Of a stretch of DNA of 64,000 bases, positions 34,132-51,405 are shown one piece after another; positions within the stretch are counted from its first letter, which is position 1; every line of letters begins with the position of its first letter. The DNA is from a virus. Its lineage: Duplodnaviria; Caudoviricetes. The translations under genes and the position numbers were made by a program. Location: IMG/VR virus record IMGVR_UViG_3300009873_000001; one strand, 5' to 3'. The notes below the pieces were generated by a model. It saw only the letters and a list, made by a program, of their open reading frames with translations, did not search any database and had not been told where the DNA came from.

Positions 34132-34521
34132 TTATTCTCTCGGCTTGCTGAGATCGAGCGCCCATGCTCTGGTGATCCCTTCCAGGGCCATGGCCACCAT
34201 GCGGTGCTGCCCGTCTACGACCCTGTGTGCCTCAGAGTCTATCAACAGGACGGAGCTTTTGGCTATGGCCCTGGCTCCGGCCCTGTACTTGGCGACTAGT
34301 TTCTTTTGCCACGGCTCGGCGTGGGCGGCGAAGATCGCCAGCAGAGACTTGCCTTGCTCCTCTTGCATGGGCTTCATGGACCACTGCGAGGGGTTGATCT
34401 GCACGAGCTCGAACTCGAGTTCCTCGAAGTCGATCATGCCTACGTAGTTCCAGACCAGCTCGCCTTCGTCAGGGACCTCGCCTTGGAGTGCTTTCGAGAT
34501 CGTGAGGTAACGCTTGCTCAT
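34132..34521 (-). CDS. ParB/Srx-like domain protein
   Basis: VVDGQHRMVAMALEG. Confidence 0.55.
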   Translation of the reverse strand: MSKRYLTISKALQGEVPDEGELVWNYVGMIDFEELEFELVQINPSQWSMKPMQEEQGKSLLAIFAAHAEPWQKKLVAKYRAGARAIAKSSVLLIDSEAHRVVDGQHRMVAMALEGITRAWALDLSKPRE

Positions 34522-34524
34522 TGG

Positions 34525-35160
34525 TTACAAGCCCTCGTGGGCGCCCATGGCTGTTCTTCTGATTTTCACGGACAGCTCGCCAGGGTCGGTCCAGATCCAG
34601 ATGCCATACAGCACGAACAGGCAGGAGAAAGGCCAGTCGCCTCCTTGGAGATTGTAATCGACGGGAAGCTGCTCAATCCCGACTGGCCGGTCCTGGACCG
34701 TGAGCTTGCAATACGGACTCAGATTGAGCAGGGTCTCGTAGGCCTTCTGAGCGCCGGCCTCGGCCATGATCTCGATCACGTCCGGGTTCGGCATGATTAG
34801 GCGCATGGGATAGCGCGCGACCAGCGGTGCCTTGGGTGGCTCTCTGTGGCTGGTGACCGTTAACTCGGCCTCGTTCCAGACCTGCCGGCAGAGGTCGCGA
34901 TCTTGTCCGACGTCTGGAATGACGGACATGCCGTAGAGGTAGAACCCTTCGAATCGTGGCAACTCTAGCCTGTGAGAAGCTGGCAGGCGGTTCCACCGCC
35001 AAGTCAATGGCTGCTTGACAGGTATCTGCTTTCCCGGGACAACGTCCACGTTCGTGCCAGGCGCCATGGGGTTTCTTCCCCAGGCGGCTTTGAGTTTTTC
35101 GAGCGCCGTGGCGTCGCCGGAGAGCGCCTTGCGTTCGAGGTCTCGGACCAGCTCGTCCAC
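34525..35160 (-). CDS. tag-family protein with beta-rich domain
   Basis: MDELVRDLERKALSGD. Confidence 0.65.
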   Translation of the reverse strand: MDELVRDLERKALSGDATALEKLKAAWGRNPMAPGTNVDVVPGKQIPVKQPLTWRWNRLPASHRLELPRFEGFYLYGMSVIPDVGQDRDLCRQVWNEAELTVTSHREPPKAPLVARYPMRLIMPNPDVIEIMAEAGAQKAYETLLNLSPYCKLTVQDRPVGIEQLPVDYNLQGGDWPFSCLFVLYGIWIWTDPGELSVKIRRTAMGAHEGL

Positions 35161-35759
35161 TAGGGGCTGATTCCTATGTCCGTGCCGTCGGCCTTGAAAC
35201 CGCCGCGCACAGTCGAGCACCTGCGGCAGGACCATTGGCGACCGTAAGGGCCGCCTGAAGGTTGGCCGACCAGAGCGTGCCAGGTGTTGGCTTGGCAGGG
35301 CTCGCACTTGAGCACCAAGTGCGGCTGCGGGTCGCAGGACACGCAATCAGCTCGCGGCAAGAAGTGCGGGCACTCTGTCTGTGATTCTGGGCCCGTGTCA
35401 CCGGCGGCAGCTCTGACGATCGCGGCGACTCGTTCTGGCGGAAGCTGGACAGCAGGCGCGTCGTTGTAGGCTGCTGCGGCCTCTTCGGGAGAGAGCGGCG
35501 CGAAGCCCTGCTGTCGGCGGAGCTCGTTGAAGACCTGCTCGAATATGCAGTCGTCACCGCACTCGTGTTCTACCCAGTTGGGGCCGCCGGGGTCGTGAAT
35601 GCCGCCCATGAGAGCCTCCAGAACGAAAACAGCGCCTGGCCAACACACCGACTTCGGCCAGTCCTGGCCGACGACGCGAGCACATTCACTCAGACCCGGT
35701 AGACGTGGAGGCAGTTTAGCACATGATCAGGACACTTGTGGAACCGACAAGGTCTTCCC

Positions 35760-36265
35760 GTCGCAGAACAACGCCCCTGCGCAGGCTCTCGCAAGTCCGT
35801 CGATCGCCGCGCGCGCGACGATCGAGAGGATCGGTCGCAGGAATAACGCCCCTGTGCAGGCTCTTGCAATGGGATCTGACCTGACCACCGGGCGCAGGAA
35901 CAACGCCCCTGCGCAGACTCTTGCAAGCGGTTCCTCGGACACCGTCTCGGCAATCGCCACGCGTGCGGTCGCAGGAACAACGCCCCTGCGCAGGCTCTTG
36001 CAAGCGACAGAACTGTTCGGTCGGTCGCAGGAACAACGCCCCTACGCAGGCTCTTGCAGAACTCGCCCTCTGGAACAAGCCAGCGGAGGAAGTCTAGTCG
36101 CAGGAACAACGCCCCTGCGCAGGCTCTTGCAAGCGAACTAGAACAGGTCGTCGACCGAGTCGCAGGAACAACGCCCCTGCGCAGGCTCTTGCGAGCGGGG
36201 AGCAGAAGCCCCGCCGTTCGGGCCCTCGTCGTCATAGTCGCAGTAACAACGCCCCTGCGCAGGCT
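35760..36265 (-). CRISPR. CRISPR array A: 8 repeats (CTTGCAAGAGCCTGCGCAGGGGCGTTGTTCCTGCGAC on minus), spacers 38,20,40,19,36,25,41 bp
   Basis: repeat starts on + at 35760, 35834, 35891, 35968, 36024, 36097, 36159, 36237 (last truncated); orientation inferred from array B. Confidence 0.9.
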
Positions 36266-36297
36266 GGTCCCTACCTTTAGAAGTGCGCAGTCTCGAG

Positions 36298-37032
36298 CTA
36301 GAACAGCCCGAGCAGCCAGTCGGCCAATCCAGCAGACGCGAGCTGGTACATGACCTTCTCAGACAGCTCGACGCTGTAGGCGGAGTTCACGAGGGCCAGA
36401 ATGCCATGCCTCGGATAGGAGGAGATCATGATCTGAGCGAGCTGGACCCACCAGTCGTCGTCTTCGTCCGTCGCCTGCCCTTCGTTCATGGAGGAGCGAA
36501 CCACTTCCCAGGCCGAGGCCTCGTCTAGCGCCAGCCAATCGCTGGCCGCGCCGAGCGCCGTCCTCGTGTCCTGAGCCCAGGCGCGGTTCTGCTCGCAGGT
36601 GCAGGGAGAGCCGGCGTGTTCCGAGAAGTAGCTCTCGCAGGCATAGCAGCCCATGAACTTGACCCTACCGGCGCGCGCGGCCTCGGAAATGGGCAGCAAG
36701 CTGGCGACTAGGGCTTGCCTGATGAAGACCGGCGTTCCAGGCTGATACGAGAGCCCGATCAGCCAATCCGTGACGGGATAGCAGCTCAGCGCCGAGTGCC
36801 CATGAGAGTCGTCTTCGCCGCGGCAGCTGCACATGCAGCCCAGGACGCGACGCAGAGCCTTAGGCTCGAGCGCGTCTTGCGCGGCCTTGACTCCGGCGTA
36901 GGCCAGGAGGCTGACCTTGTGGGCGGAGAGCAGGCCAGCGCGGATTGCTTCGCAAGCAGCTCGTTCGCGCAACTCTCGAGTCGCGCCCGAACGCGCCGCT
37001 CTGAGGGCTGATCTGACTTTGGAGTCGGCCAT
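36298..37032 (-). CDS. tag-family protein located between the two CRISPR arrays
   Basis: MADSKVRSALRAARSG...IRAG...LLAYAG. Confidence 0.7.
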   Translation of the reverse strand: MADSKVRSALRAARSGATRELRERAACEAIRAGLLSAHKVSLLAYAGVKAAQDALEPKALRRVLGCMCSCRGEDDSHGHSALSCYPVTDWLIGLSYQPGTPVFIRQALVASLLPISEAARAGRVKFMGCYACESYFSEHAGSPCTCEQNRAWAQDTRTALGAASDWLALDEASAWEVVRSSMNEGQATDEDDDWWVQLAQIMISSYPRHGILALVNSAYSVELSEKVMYQLASAGLADWLLGLF

Positions 37033-37050
37033 TCGTCTGCTGGGACCACA

Positions 37051-38932
37051 GTCGCAGAATATGCGGCTTCTGCGCAAGCGTTTTCGAGCGTACCGCAACT
37101 GGACGTCGCAGAAACAAGCCTCTGCGCAGGCGCATTCACTGGGCGGACAGGCCACACTGTCGCAGAGCGCCAAGCCTCTGCGCGAGCTGTTTTACGAGCG
37201 CGCCGGTGCCGCGGTGGCGAGGTAGTTCCCAACACCAACCAGCCCGTTCTGTCACAGAGCACCAAGCCTCTGCGCAAGCGTTTCTACCTCTTGGCGCCGG
37301 GAGTGGACCGCGTTCGGTGCGGTGCGGTCGCAGAGCACCAAGCCTCTGCGCAAGCTTTTCTACTGAGACCCAAGCGAGGCGAGGCTGCGAGGCGAGGCTG
37401 AGCCAGGCTGGTTGTCGCAGAGCACCAAGCCTCTGCGCAAGCGTTTCTACTAGGGAGCGCCAGGATCGTCGCCGGGCTTGAAGGCCGCAGAGCACGAAGC
37501 CTCTGCGCAAGCGTTTCTACAGGCGATCGAGATCACGGGCGCCAACTACTATCGAGTCGCAGAGCACGAAGCCTCTGCGCAAGCGTTTCTACGACGATCG
37601 CGGTGGCCACCTGCACCTGCGGGTGGACTTGCCGTCGCAGAGCACGAAGCCTCTGCGCAAGCGTTTCTACTCGAAGGGGAACCACTCTGGCCCCACGGCT
37701 TTGCCTGACGTCGCAGAGCACGAAGCCTCTGCGCAAGCGTTTCTACTCTTCAGCGCGACGGGGACGCCGAGTCGCGTGTCGAGTCGCAGAGCACGAAGCC
37801 TCTGCGCAAGCGTTTCTACCTCACCCATTCGCCGTTCCGCGCGGAGACGAATCTGTCGCAGAGCACCAAGCCTCTGCGCAAGCGTTTTTACTCTCCACCG
37901 TGCAGGCATAGAGGGGCTTCTTCCGCCGCAGAGCACCAAGCCTCTGCGCAAGCGTTTCTACCCTGACAGCAGGGCGGCGGCGGCGCGGAGTACTCCCGCG
38001 TCGCAGAGCACCAAGCCTCTGCGCAAGCGTTTCTACGAGGAGGAGGCGAGCAGCGTCCTCGCCAGTTTCGTCGGTCGCAGAGCACCAAGCCTCTGCGCAA
38101 GCGTTTCTACCAACGGGCAAGGCGGCGCAACTGGTGGGTCGTGCGCTGTCGCAGAGCACCAAGCCTCTGCGCAAGCGTTTCTACATGTCGTCCGGCTCAG
38201 GCCAATCGTCATTAGGGTCGGTATGTCGCAGAGCACGAAGCCTCTGCGCAAGCGTTTCTACCTTGCCGTAGCGGCTCCACAGGCCAGTCGCCATGTCGCA
38301 GAGCACGGAGCCTCTGCGCAAGCGTTTCTACCAAGCGTTTCTACGGCCTATGCCGTCGGATTCACGGGGTTCGGAATGGCCTTGTCGCAGAGCACCAAGC
38401 CTCTGCGCAAGCGTTTCTACTCCGGCGTCCAGGATCGACTCACCCCAAACCGCGTCTAGTCGCAGAGCACGAAGCCTCTGCGCAAGCGTTTCTACTCCCA
38501 GCGTGGCCAGCGGGCGCGGGCGCCGGGTGCAGAGCACCAAGCCTCTGCGCAAGCGTTTCTACCTCGAGACAAACCCGCGCCTCGGAGTGAGGCTCGACCA
38601 TGGAGTCGCAGAGCACCAAGCCTCTGCGCAAGCGTTTCTACGTCGTGTGGAGCGATGTGCATCCTACGCCGCTAGACGTCGCAGAGCACCAAGCCTCTGC
38701 GCAAGCGTTTCTACTTTCAGACGGACCCCTCCGAGCTCGCGTCTCATGACAGTCGCAGAGCACCAAGCCTCTGCGCAAGCGTTTCTACGCCCAAGATCCA
38801 TACGATCGCCATGACCCACTGGTCGCAGAGCACCAAGCCTCTGCGCAAGCGTTTCTACGATTAACTTGCCGCGCCGGAGTTTTAACATTTAAGCAGTCGC
38901 AGAGCACCAAGCCTCTGCGCAAGCGTTTCTAC
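37051..38932 (-). CRISPR. CRISPR array B: 26 repeats (GTAGAAACGCTTGCGCAGAGGCTTGGTGCTCTGCGAC on minus), 25 spacers mostly 30-42 bp
   Basis: 37-bp repeats; three degenerate repeats at 37051-37195 mark the trailer, so the leader end is next to the effector gene. Confidence 0.97.
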
Positions 38933-48041: not shown

Positions 48042-48113
48042 TCGAGCACCCGGGACTTGCACCCGGAGTCTCTGCGTCCCAAACGCAGCGCCTTTCTATT
48101 AGGCCAGTGCTCG
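48042..48113 (-). tRNA. tRNA-Pro(TGG)
   Basis: CTGCG-TTTGGGA-CGCAG. Confidence 0.85.
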
Positions 48114-48124
48114 TTGTTGATCGA

Positions 48125-48213
48125 CGGAGCGCGCAGGACTCGCACCTGATCCCGGTTGCCCAGGACCGTCGGCTTAGCAAACCGCGCCCAGCGCCTGGCT
48201 GAGTTCACGCTCC
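48125..48213 (-). tRNA. tRNA-Ser(GCT)
   Basis: loop TTGCTAA, long arm, G73. Confidence 0.85.
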
Positions 48214-48215
48214 AA

Positions 48216-48287
48216 TAGGACCGGCGAGAGTCGCACTCGCTTCTCCACGTTATCAGCGTGGCATCTTATCTCGTGGACGACGGTCCC
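48216..48287 (-). tRNA. tRNA-Ile(GAT)
   Basis: CCACG-CTGATAA-CGTGG. Confidence 0.85.
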
Positions 48288-48288
48288 A

Positions 48289-48362
48289 TGCTTCCTCCGG
48301 GATTTGCACCCGGAAGCTCCTGCACCTCAAGCAGGCGAGTCTGCTAGTTCCTCCAAGGAAGC
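48289..48362 (-). tRNA. tRNA-Leu(GAG), short variable loop
   Basis: CCTGC-TTGAGGT-GCAGG. Confidence 0.85.
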
Positions 48363-48370
48363 GTGTATGG

Positions 48371-48501
48371 CGCCCGACGAGAACGACGAAGACGTTTTTG
48401 ACCTCCGAGTCGAACGGAATCTCCAGCTTGTGGCTGGCGCATTTCCCAATGCTAGGCCTGCAGAGTTGGTTGCAGTTGTAGTCCTTGTCAACATTCGGGC
48501 A
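48371..48501 (-). ncRNA. Y-RNA-like ncRNA c
   Basis: TGCCCGAATGT...CTCGTCGGGCG; internal unpermuted mini-cloverleaf. Confidence 0.75.
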
Positions 48502-48509
48502 TGTATTCT

Positions 48510-48582
48510 TGCTCTGGGCGGGGCTCGCACCCGCATGCTCCCGTTTTAAGTCGGGCGCCTGTGCTGCTTCGGCTACCAGAGC
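48510..48582 (-). tRNA. tRNA-Leu(TAA), short variable loop, anticodon arm 1 nt short
   Basis: CCCG-ACTTAAAA-CGGG. Confidence 0.75.
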
Positions 48583-48588
48583 GTGTAG

Positions 48589-48662
48589 TGTCCCACCCCG
48601 GATTTGCACCGGGAAACTCCTCGGCCTGAGCGAGGCGAGTCTGCTAGTTCCTCCAGCGGGAC
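48589..48662 (-). tRNA. tRNA-Leu(CAG), short variable loop
   Basis: CCTCG-CTCAGGC-CGAGG. Confidence 0.85.
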
Positions 48663-48665
48663 GCA

Positions 48666-48738
48666 TGCTCCAGGCGGGATTCGCACCCGCATACCCTCGT
48701 TCTTGAGACGAGTGCCTCTGCTGTTCGGCCACCGGAGC
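48666..48738 (-). tRNA. tRNA-Leu(CAA), short variable loop
   Basis: CTCGT-CTCAAGA-ACGAG. Confidence 0.85.
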
Positions 48739-48746
48739 TGGTTCGA

Positions 48747-48818
48747 TAGGGCGCCAGGGAGTTGAACCCCGGTCTGCTCCTCATAAGAGAGCGGTCCTGA
48801 CCGTTAGACGAGCGCCCC
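48747..48818 (-). tRNA. tRNA with TAT anticodon (nominal Ile)
   Basis: GCTCT-CTTATGA-GGAGC; the only array tRNA with canonical GG/TTC. Confidence 0.8.
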
Positions 48819-48863
48819 AGCGTGAAGCCGGCGCGCAGCTATTCGAAACATGACCGCTCCTTT

Positions 48864-48944
48864 TGCAGCTGGCGGGACTCGCACCCGCACTCCGTGAGGA
48901 ACCGGCTCCTAAGACCGGCGCGTCTGCTGTTCCGCCACAGCTGC
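48864..48944 (-). tRNA. tRNA-Leu(TAG)
   Basis: loop CTTAGGA, long arm. Confidence 0.9.
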
Positions 48945-48947
48945 TAG

Positions 48948-49140
48948 TTGGCTGACGAGTGGAGATCGAGTCCTCGAGCTTTCGCCCGATATGGCCTCCC
49001 GCACTGGACCGAGCAAGCCCGGTTACCAGCCGCTGGCGCGCGTCGAGCAACTACGGGAGCTGCACAACGCTGACTAGTCCCTCGCGGGAACAATCGCTAC
49101 CTTAGGGCCGTCATGTAGATCCGATCGAGCATTCAGCCAA
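48948..49140 (-). ncRNA. Y-RNA-like ncRNA d (193 nt, non-tRNA cargo)
   Basis: TTGGCTGAATGC...CTCGTCAGCCAA; GNRA hairpins inside. Confidence 0.7.
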
Positions 49141-49212
49141 TACTCCCGAGAGGAATTGCACCCCTATCTGACGGTCCGTAGCCGTCTGTCCTATCTGTTG
49201 AACGACGGGAGC
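49141..49212 (-). tRNA. tRNA-Arg(ACG)
   Basis: GACGG-CTACGGA-CCGTC. Confidence 0.85.
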
Positions 49213-49216
49213 TTGA

Positions 49217-49289
49217 TCCTGAGTCCGGGACTTGCACCCGGCGTATCGTGGTCCACAGCCACGCGTGGCGCTATCTCCACCTACTCAGG
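49217..49289 (-). tRNA. tRNA-His(GTG)
   Basis: CGTGG-CTGTGGA-CCACG; no encoded G-1/C73. Confidence 0.8.
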
Positions 49290-49292
49290 TCA

Positions 49293-49363
49293 CGCGGACA
49301 CTGGGAATCGCACCCAGGACTCCAGCTTGGGAAGCTGGCACGTTGCTCCTACGCCATGCCCGC
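49293..49363 (-). tRNA. tRNA-Gly(CCC)
   Basis: CCAGC-TTCCCAA-GCTGG. Confidence 0.85.
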
Positions 49364-49370
49364 AAAACGA

Positions 49371-49455
49371 TCCGCGCGGTGTGAGTCGCACACACAGGGA
49401 TTTTTAGGCCATCTGATTTACAGTCAGCTCCGGCTCTCTACCGGCCTACGCGCGG
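49371..49455 (-). tRNA. tRNA-Tyr(GTA) with C1-G72
   Basis: loop CTGTAAA, long variable region. Confidence 0.8.
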
Positions 49456-49458
49456 TTG

Positions 49459-49591
49459 CTGGACGACTAGTTTTTGCTGAGACGTGTGGTGTTGATCTAC
49501 ATGCGGCTTGCGCCGCAAGGCGGGATTCGCACCCGCAACCTTCAGAACGAGTCTGATGATCTATCTGTAGTCCCAACGAGCATTCGTCCAG
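49459..49591 (-). ncRNA. Y-RNA-like ncRNA e
   Basis: CTGGACGAATGC...CTAGTCGTCCAG; tRNA fold opened in the D loop. Confidence 0.8.
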
Positions 49592-49592
49592 A

Positions 49593-49664
49593 AGCGGGTG
49601 AGGAGGGTTGCACTCCCGACCTCAACGTTGGCAACGTCGCGCTCTACTACTGAGCTACACCCGC
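49593..49664 (-). tRNA. tRNA-Gly(GCC)
   Basis: loop TTGCCAA, U73. Confidence 0.9.
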
Positions 49665-49748
49665 ACGCTCCGACGCTGGAGCTGCCCCAGCCAGGCCCGC
49701 AGGCGCAAGCAAGGACGCCTTGGCTCACAACCATGCGTCGATCGGAGT

Positions 49749-49820
49749 TGGGCACGGTGAGGATCGCACTCACGACTTCTTGCTTGTAAGGCAAGCACTC
49801 TACTGCTGAGTTACGCGCCC
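49749..49820 (-). tRNA. tRNA-Val(TAC)
   Basis: CTTGC-CTTACAA-GCAAG. Confidence 0.9.
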
Positions 49821-49824
49821 GTGA

Positions 49825-49954
49825 TTCCGCGACAAGGGGTGCTGAGACATTTATCCAGGCGCGCTGCTATTACGCTATACCCGATCTTTCGACCGGGCAT
49901 CCGGATTCGCACCGGCACTTCCTGGGCCATGTAGTCCCTGCTGCATTCGCGGAA
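49825..49954 (-). ncRNA. Y-RNA-like ncRNA f (YrlA-type topology)
   Basis: TTCCGCGAATGC...CTTGTCGCGGAA; T arm, GAAA-capped acceptor, D arm, joined through the anticodon stem CCAGG/CCTGG. Confidence 0.85.
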
Positions 49955-50026
49955 CAGCCCGCCAGGGACTTGCACCCTGAACCTTGCGCTCCAAAGGCGC
50001 TCGCTCTTCTGTTGAGCTAGCGGGCG
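49955..50026 (-). tRNA. tRNA-Gln(TTG)
   Basis: loop CTTTGGA, G73. Confidence 0.85.
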
Positions 50027-50037
50027 ACGAGAATCGA

Positions 50038-50109
50038 CTGCCCCTCTAGGAATCGCACCTAGGTCTCTCGGGTCAGAGCCGAGCGTCCGTGCTGCTGGAC
50101 TAAGGGGCA
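50038..50109 (-). tRNA. tRNA-Gln(CTG)
   Basis: CTCGG-CTCTGAC-CCGAG, U1-A72. Confidence 0.9.
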
Positions 50110-50119
50110 ATGTAGTTCG

Positions 50120-50347
50120 TTACGCGGACATGTTGATCTTCGTGCTACCGACGGCCTGAGCTAGCGTTTGTCGTGCGCCACTCGGGCCTCCAAACAAGAA
50201 TCGCGCTCGAGAGCGCTGTCGCCAGTGGCCGTGTTCGATTCGCGCCTGGCGCTCATCTGGCTTCGCACGCTTGCAGCGTCGCAGGTGGGAAGTAAGGCCG
50301 TTGGCCGAAAACTCTCCTTGGCAATACGGGCAGGTGGGATTGTTCAT
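50120..50347 (-). CDS. small zinc-finger protein
   Basis: CPYCQGEF...L..H..RC. Confidence 0.55.
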   Translation of the reverse strand: MNNPTCPYCQGEFSANGLTSHLRRCKRAKPDERQARIEHGHWRQRSRARFLFGGPSGARQTLAQAVGSTKINMSA

Positions 50348-50350
50348 GAT

Positions 50351-50423
50351 CAGGGGCGCTCGGAGTTGCACCGAGATCTCGGGTTTTGGAGGCCCGCCGG
50401 TTCCTGTTACCTGTCACGCCCCT
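50351..50423 (-). tRNA. tRNA-Trp(CCA)
   Basis: loop CTCCAAA, A1-U72, G73. Confidence 0.85.
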
Positions 50424-50430
50424 ATGCGAG

Positions 50431-50515
50431 CTTATGGGGTAGGACTCGCACCTACAGAGGGTCGCCCCACCTGGTTAACAGCCAGGCCCGCTACTGAATT
50501 ACGGTATACCCATGA
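50431..50515 (-). tRNA. tRNA-Asn(GTT) with atypical long variable arm
   Basis: CCTGG-CTGTTAA-CCAGG followed by GGG-GCGA-CCC. Confidence 0.75.
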
Positions 50516-50587
50516 CTCACCGGGTAGGGATCGCACCTACGACCCTCGCGTTAACAGCGCGCCGCTCTACTGCTGAGCTACCGGTGA
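50516..50587 (-). tRNA. tRNA-Asn(GTT)
   Basis: loop CTGTTAA, U1-A72, G73. Confidence 0.9.
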
Positions 50588-50593
50588 AGGAGA

Positions 50594-50665
50594 TGACGCC
50601 GAAGGGACTTGCACCCTCAGCCTCCTGGCTGAGAACCAGGCGATCTTCTGTTGATCTACGGCGCC
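50594..50665 (-). tRNA. tRNA-Glu(CTC)
   Basis: CCTGG-TTCTCAG-CCAGG. Confidence 0.85.
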
Positions 50666-50669
50666 ATAC

Positions 50670-50738
50670 TCGGCCGACAAGAAGCGACCGTGAGAGTTCA
50701 TTTCCCTAAAATGTACTCACGACCATGCATTCGACCGA
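50670..50738 (-). ncRNA. minimal Y-RNA-like ncRNA g (69 nt, stem only)
   Basis: TCGGTCGAATGC...CTTGTCGGCCGA. Confidence 0.7.
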
Positions 50739-50812
50739 TTGCGGAGGCGAGATTCGCACTCGCGACCTCAGGGTTATGAGCCCTGCGAGCTACTGGGCTG
50801 CTCCACTCCGCG
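50739..50812 (-). tRNA. initiator tRNA-fMet(CAT)
   Basis: C1xA72 mismatch, GGG/CCC anticodon stem. Confidence 0.9.
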
Positions 50813-50816
50813 ACGA

Positions 50817-50890
50817 CGCGCACGACGGGACTTGCACCCGCAAACCTTCGGCTCGACAGGCCGCTACTCTTCTAATTGAGCTACGTGCGC
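50817..50890 (-). tRNA. tRNA-Asp(GTC)
   Basis: loop CTGTCGA, G73. Confidence 0.85.
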
Positions 50891-50894
50891 AGGT

Positions 50895-51021
50895 TCCGAC
50901 GACAAGAGGAGCCAAGTGGCTTTGATCTAGCCCACGCCCTCCCACGAGTGGGAGTCCCGGGAGTCGAACCCAGGTCGATCCGTTTATCAGACGGATGTAC
51001 ACCCAGCGAGCATTCGTCGGA
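50895..51021 (-). ncRNA. Y-RNA-like ncRNA h
   Basis: TCCGACGAATGC...CTTGTCGTCGGA; Ile-like anticodon arm TCCGT-CTGATAA-ACGGA, T arm, looped acceptor. Confidence 0.8.
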
Positions 51022-51093
51022 TGGACACGCCCGGAATTGCACCAGGTCCTTGCGGTCTTCAGCCGCGCGCTCTACTGATTGAGCTACGTGTCC
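51022..51093 (-). tRNA. tRNA-Phe(GAA)
   Basis: loop CTGAAGA. Confidence 0.9.
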
Positions 51094-51405
51094 AAGAAGG
51101 CAGGCGAGTTGAGAAAGGGCGGACGGCTGGCTGCACGAGCTCTACGACCGTCGGATCGAGCATACCATACGGGCTGCCCCGGCCTGGCTGTCACGCGTTC
51201 TTCTTTGGCGGCAAGGCCACGAACCACAACGACTTGCCAGCTGTGGGCACGAGCTGCCAGCCAGGCGGCAAGGTCGGCGGATCGCGCGAGGCGTCCGCGC
51301 GGACGAAGATCAGCCCGGACTCCTTGCCGAGCGCCGTTTCGTACCCGGCTGCCGTCAGCTTCGCGCGCAGCTCGTCGCGCTCTCGCGTTCTTGGCAAGTC
51401 GTCGG

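Follow-up and report, generated by a model that had tools for sequence, protein, structure and literature searches.

Cas12m, the effector of type V-M CRISPR systems, is the closest described counterpart of the locus analyzed here. Members of this family bind DNA, and none of those tested, D-E-D variants included, cuts it (PMC11013384). Cas12m does cut inside each repeat, and its crRNAs are 50-60 nt long (PMC11013384). The Cas12m R-loop comprises 17 bp, and the 5' 7 nt of the repeat are disordered in the published structure (PMC10442227). For PmCas12m, activity was best with 17-nt spacers and lower above 20 nt (10.64898/2026.03.26.714355). Besides Cas12m itself, viral arrays without adaptation genes (PMC11656645) and shortened regulatory guides (10.1101/2023.03.03.530964) are already known.

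Genomic setting and identity of the effector

We analyzed a 64-kb stretch of DNA (hereafter the window) that belongs to a contig of 273,580 bp. The contig contains small genes of no assigned role and a large tRNA cluster, and its source is therefore most likely a large bacterial virus. In the window, ARAGORN placed at least 32 clustered minus-strand tRNA genes at 43374-51094. Along the minus strand, a 642-aa cas12m gene (38992-40920) is followed by an array of 26 repeats (the main array, or array 2; 37051-38932), a 245-aa gene (36298-37035) with homologues at 75% and 44% identity, and a second array, the side-array or array 1. A 149-aa gene (35160-35609, minus strand) lies downstream of array 1; homologous DNA, divided into two ORFs, is found in a sister virus.

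Three lines of evidence identify the 642-aa protein as a Cas12m. First, its best sequence match in the PDB was a Cas12m chain (E 2.7e-49). Second, the PADLOC Cas12u1 profile matched residues 18-608 with an E-value of 1.6e-77. Third, the four top Foldseek hits of its predicted model (pLDDT 79) were Cas12m structures (TM 0.56-0.63, E 1e-22 to 2e-17), the next family following at 4e-10. Two features of type V-M were thus observed, namely a V-U1/Cas12m homologue of about 600 aa and the Cas12m fold (WED, REC1 with a REC2 insertion, RuvC and zinc finger). The RuvC triad is D331-E508-D597; this D-E-D triad and the kinship with Cas12m suggest that the resident protein likely binds DNA without cutting it. 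No member of the cas1, cas2 or cas4 families was detected among the seven neighbour genes scanned, and no second effector was found within the window.

The main array, with a median spacer of 37 nt, has a young end with a leader, identical repeats and uniform spacers, which is the hallmark of an active acquiring array, and an old end with worn repeats and two short spacers. One of its spacers (38332-38383) is 52 nt long and closes with a second copy of the repeat's first 13 nt, a scar of slippage, and three further spacers measure 50-55 nt.

Structure of the side-array and its repeat scaffold

Array 1 (35760-36273, minus strand) consists of eight repeats of 36-37 nt and seven spacers and has no leader. 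With the repeat taken as 37 nt, the spacers measure 38, 20, 40, 19, 36, 25 and 41 nt. Our recount thus agrees with the initial annotation on the presence of the array, its spacer lengths and their strict long/short order, and re-examination of the eight repeat copies also showed the scattered substitutions that it had described. The array begins 32 nt past a stop codon with a shortened repeat: the first copy in reading order (36237-36265) consists of the 29-nt scaffold only and is devoid of the 5' 7 nt. Changes are present all along the array, which shows neither a leader nor a young end of identical repeats and uniform spacers and accordingly does not bear the hallmark of an active acquiring array.

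Unitigs from one activated-sludge run covered 34400-35997, 36107-36187 and 36163-37284 with zero differences; 35998-36106 was unbridged among the pieces listed, and this support is not independent, since the window itself may stem from the sample sequenced in that run. Spacers 1-3, 6 and 7 were reproduced exactly by these unitigs. No exact copy of the array 1 repeat was present in IMG/VR, and it had no Rfam match. Spacer 6 and the end of the 245-aa gene are 72% alike, which we ascribe to chance. In addition, four of the seven spacers end in CG right before the next repeat in reading order (35928-36236), and the repeat extended in this way resembles the scaffold start of the main array.

Read on the minus strand, the array 1 repeat fits the Cas12m scaffold, with a 3-bp stem, a flipped base, a G:A pair and a 6-bp pseudoknot helix, and agrees with the published numbering. 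All type V-M repeat features were found, including stem and pseudoknot, the G(-24 or -23):A(-2) pair and C(-1). A strict scaffold pattern was matched by five of eight repeats in array 1 and 23 of 26 in array 2; the rest of the window contained no further match and no solitary scaffolds outside arrays. Of the pseudoknot pairs in array 1, 96.8% of cells are formed; two mismatches and two G-U wobbles were seen. Probably harmful changes were seen in three of the eight scaffolds, and none was compensatory. As for the short spacers, the scaffold before the 25-nt spacer (36134-36158) is intact, that before the 19-nt spacer (36005-36023) has one G-U wobble, and that before the 20-nt spacer (35871-35890) has a wobble together with an A(-2) to C change; by analogy with the role of A(-2) in the Cas12m structure (PMC10442227), this change may impair binding.

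The array 1 scaffold equals that of the main array at 21 of 29 positions and those of other viruses' arrays at 26-27, so array 1 probably derives from another Cas12m module. With a match of 21/29, loading of its RNA on the resident Cas12m can be proposed only tentatively. The eight differing positions would also fit an explanation in which array 1 serves another Cas12m, be it a second copy in the 274-kb genome or that of a host or competitor, as borrowed guides or decoy RNA, or in which Cas12m cleavage of its repeats mainly serves to terminate or process the transcript of the gene upstream. A related 153-kb virus with two cas12m genes and 12 repeat clusters, the known viral mini-arrays and Racrs (PMC11656645) and the start of array 1 at 32 nt past a stop codon would be in line with this explanation. 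However, the 64-kb window contains no second effector, and decoys would not need seven unique spacers. Taken together, we consider this explanation decidedly improbable.

Long-short order and hairpin spacers

From the strict alternation, the initial annotation inferred a repurposed array in which short guides direct binding or repression or in which units are processed in pairs. The order itself is real, but we found no indication that it exceeds chance. A perfect LSLSLSL order is one of 35 possible arrangements (p=0.029), a value obtained post hoc, and eight related mixed blocks showed 28 long/short transitions against 29.6 expected. Given this post hoc status and the lack of an excess in relatives, the alternation is probably a coincidence. 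When labels were permuted in 15 mixed arrays, at least one LSLSLSL run appeared in 32% of permutations, a proportion that is somewhat too high because short units cluster at old ends, which the permutation does not take into account.

The self-complementarity of several spacers, also pointed out in the initial annotation, proved to be at chance level. Compared with shuffles, only spacer 1 was nominally better (p=0.035, one of seven tests), whereas the hairpin quoted for spacer 4 gave p=0.17, and the array 1 spacers as a set did not stand out from those of the main array (p=0.31).

A functional alternation, in which long-short pairs are made or processed together or hairpin spacers have a structural role, therefore has in its favor the perfect order in array 1 and a short LSLSL run in one related array (L012). 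On the other hand, relatives show no excess of alternation, hairpins occur at chance level, the orthologous site in a sister virus lacks an array, and Cas12m cuts within each repeat (PMC11013384), which speaks against paired processing. Moreover, the repeats have no two-unit periodicity, and three of four long and two of three short spacers follow equally or nearly equally well-formed scaffolds. We regard such a function as highly improbable.

Short units across Cas12m arrays

We compared 35 arrays located beside Cas12m relatives, measuring each segment from the end of one scaffold to the start of the next. Segment lengths were bimodal, with classes at 40-49 nt and 18-27 nt, and units of 17-28 nt were present in 13 of the 35 arrays, with a lower edge near 17 nt. 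Among the 96 short segments, 64 fell at 17-28 nt and 10 below 17 nt. The excess at 17-28 nt over an even spread persisted when the richest loci were left out (p from 8e-4 to 2e-7, values that are too small as units within one array are not independent). Young units had perfect repeats and spacers of 34-41 nt, and old units often combined worn repeats with short spacers; short units made up 79/180 of those after worn repeats versus 9/173 of the others. Thus, the short class is real and family-wide. Its floor near 17 nt in old units equals the published 17-bp Cas12m R-loop. In array 1, all three short spacers measure 19-25 nt, slightly more than the required 17 nt, and the free segments of its short units (27-33 nt) coincide with the upper limit of the peak seen in the family.

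Several relatives illustrate how short units are distributed. The array of a complete 113-kb virus (G002; L016:4412-6800) has about 40 units, the old two thirds of which are mostly short; one of its short spacers shares its 3' 12 nt with a nearby long spacer, which hints at shortening by recombination. We found no clean pair of long ancestor and short descendant that would indicate which spacer end is removed. Two related contigs (L007:3754-4030 and L013:7557-7927) carry, directly upstream of cas12m, an array of short units alone, in which units have been gained and lost and shared ones are almost unchanged. The 153-kb virus mentioned above (G004; L009, L012, L022 and L067) has its two cas12m genes and 12 repeat clusters spread across the genome. 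Worn satellite Cas12m arrays were found in this virus and in one other (G001).

Signs of selection on worn repeats and short guides

In worn repeats, the 5' 7 nt were changed in 25% of copies versus 7% at paired positions, that is, 3.5 times faster. Distinct double changes at Watson-Crick pairs stayed paired in 21 of 22 cases, and one-sided changes kept pairing in 25 of 40 (p=0.08). The guides themselves appeared to be conserved as well. L007 and L013, which are about 90% alike, have five short segments in common that differ at 2 of 96 nt, compared with about 10% in the flanks, and share no long spacer. Similarly, the main array and its counterpart in L001 (about 80% background identity) are identical over 18/18 and 17/17 nt after two trailer repeats. 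Shared short guides are hence more conserved than their flanks, and the trailer lengths of 18 and 17 nt are close to the 17-bp R-loop. In these two trailer guides (37051-37195 in the window, L001:4175-4270), the 18 nt follow one trailer repeat and the 17 nt follow the last repeat of the array, and the gene downstream differs between the two viruses. Judged by this identity, they are the best candidates for conserved functional guides, and no target was found for them.

The 17-bp R-loop with the matching length floor, the fold kept in worn repeats and the conservation of guides over flanks together suggest that short units are probably compacted yet usable guides. The proposal of the initial annotation that short units work as guides thus receives indirect support from these observations. 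The evidence of selection covers the family and array 2, and is weaker for array 1, with its two wobbles, three probably harmful changes, no compensation and no orthologue.

Orthologous site, mobility and origin of the side-array

The sister virus (L001, L002 and L108) has a nucleotide identity of 75-80% and a Cas12m that is 82% identical. At the orthologous site, of which one was found, it carries both the 245-aa gene and its downstream neighbour, and the DNA in between is free of repeats. Since the flanking genes are there and repeats are absent, array 1 is lineage-specific as judged from this comparison, either inserted here or lost in the sister virus. The comparison of orthologous arrays suggested at the outset therefore found the sole such site without an array, and the guides of array 1 show no conservation. 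In the sister virus, a promoter-like stretch stands directly after the stop codon of the 245-aa gene; in the window, the same stretch, with an extended -10-like box (35690-35722, minus strand), delimits the array site on the right. It scored 37, the best of 500 shuffles scoring 35, and may act as a promoter. No consensus promoter or minus-strand terminator was detected at 33-42 kb.

The cas12m gene and main array of the sister virus lie at a different junction, and in a more distant relative the flanking genes are present but not separated by a cas12m gene; the module therefore appears to be mobile. A comparison of the module (38992-40920 in the window) with L001, L108 and the P0109 contig gave differing junctions, one beside an inverted gene block and another without the module.

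These observations bear on a further explanation, in which array 1 is the decaying orphan of an earlier inserted Cas12m module that has lost its effector, its short spacers being neutral deletions and useless as guides. The missing leader, the uncompensated substitutions along the whole array, a repeat that resembles the arrays of other viruses more than the resident array, the empty site in the sister virus and a module that seems to shift between junctions would all be expected from such an orphan. However, all three deletions halt at 19-25 nt, just over the 17-nt need, the first repeat retains exactly the 29-nt scaffold, and both length floor and conservation are family-wide. We thus consider an orphan with useless guides rather unlikely.

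Our preferred explanation, which we hold to be reasonably probable, is that array 1 is a leaderless V-M Cas12m side-array that is read through from upstream and carries compacted but usable binding guides in incidental order. Array 1 would probably be transcribed on the minus strand by read-through, and Cas12m would cut inside each repeat to yield single-unit crRNAs with a 29-36 nt scaffold plus guide. As the guide would pair by its first 17 nt alone, deletions that shorten spacers would be tolerated as long as about 17-20 nt remain and counter-selected beyond that point, such that old units would settle at a minimal size and still be usable. Short and long guides alike would act through PAM-dependent binding, which would impede transcription or replication and leave the DNA uncut, and the long-short order of units would be incidental. 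The initial annotation had attributed binding or repression rather than cutting to the short guides. The binding part is likely right, but not as a trait of short guides: the neighbouring effector belongs to the non-cutting Cas12m family, no tested member of which cuts DNA, so binding would apply to the long spacers too.

Target searches

No target of the array 1 spacers beyond chance was found in the window, INPHARED phages, PLSDB plasmids, IMG/VR or GTDB. Searches of both arrays against INPHARED phages and PLSDB plasmids, and of exact 18-21 nt patterns of four spacers against IMG/VR, were blank or at chance level. One search of GTDB genomes gave nothing and another two 20-mer matches versus about one expected, both in ORFs of unrelated bacteria. 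Within the window, no 17-nt guide match had fewer than two mismatches, and none to a cas promoter or the array's own promoter was found. Furthermore, 75 short guides of four related viruses did not match the genome of their own virus better than shuffled guides did. This result speaks against self-regulation as a general role of short guides and leaves host or competitor sequences as possible targets. In one related contig, two full-length spacers match their own contig perfectly, back to back and on opposite strands (L010:7983-8170 and L010:4920-4992).

A broader hypothesis would be that viral Cas12m arrays have two tiers, full-length spacers that turn over and fixed guides of 17-20 nt that selection keeps across virus lineages and that silence conserved host genes. 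Cas12m would then be a multi-target host repressor, and array 1 an acquired cassette part-way into the fixed tier. On present evidence we think this hypothesis unlikely.

Comparison with known systems

A literature search yielded no description of Cas12m units being compacted naturally to a floor of 17 nt. With alternation and hairpins set aside as probable noise, what remains is that the natural length floor in old Cas12m units coincides with the structural 17-bp R-loop, and that guides are conserved between viruses sharing no long spacer. If conserved host targets exist, the short guides would reveal the purpose of phage Cas12m systems, and CRISPR finders that insist on uniformity of spacers and repeats would be overlooking the best-conserved part of these arrays.

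The locus resembles the type V-M systems of MmCas12m2 (PDB 8HHL; PMC10442227), GoCas12m (PDB 8PM4) and MsCas12m (PMC11013384), and PmCas12m (10.64898/2026.03.26.714355) in its effector of about 600 aa and its fold, in an apparent lack of adjacent cas1 or cas2 (here, none among the seven neighbours scanned) and an array downstream of the gene, in a repeat of 36-37 nt with stem, pseudoknot and AC end, and in a D-E-D triad as in some non-cutting members. It differs from them in its large-virus carrier, in an additional array that has no leader, uses a different repeat and follows an unrelated gene, and in spacers of two length classes, the shorter of which is close to the 17-nt R-loop.

Regulatory mini-arrays and crlRNAs (CreR and tracr-L; 10.1101/2023.03.03.530964) likewise have worn repeats, shortened spacers and non-cutting silencing. 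However, crlRNAs such as CreR have one or two spacers, precede the cas genes and match a cas promoter, whereas array 1 has seven, lies 2.7 kb downstream of cas12m and gave no promoter match. Viral mini-arrays and Racrs (PMC11656645, PMC10651486) are also virus-borne repeats apart from an adaptation module, but they use the repeat and effector of the host, whereas the present virus has its own effector gene, of the family that fits the repeat. Finally, engineered shortened arrays (PMC10478742) show that spacers can be trimmed to the part used by the effector with activity kept; those arrays are artificial and based on Cas9, whereas compaction in the present locus would be a natural outcome.
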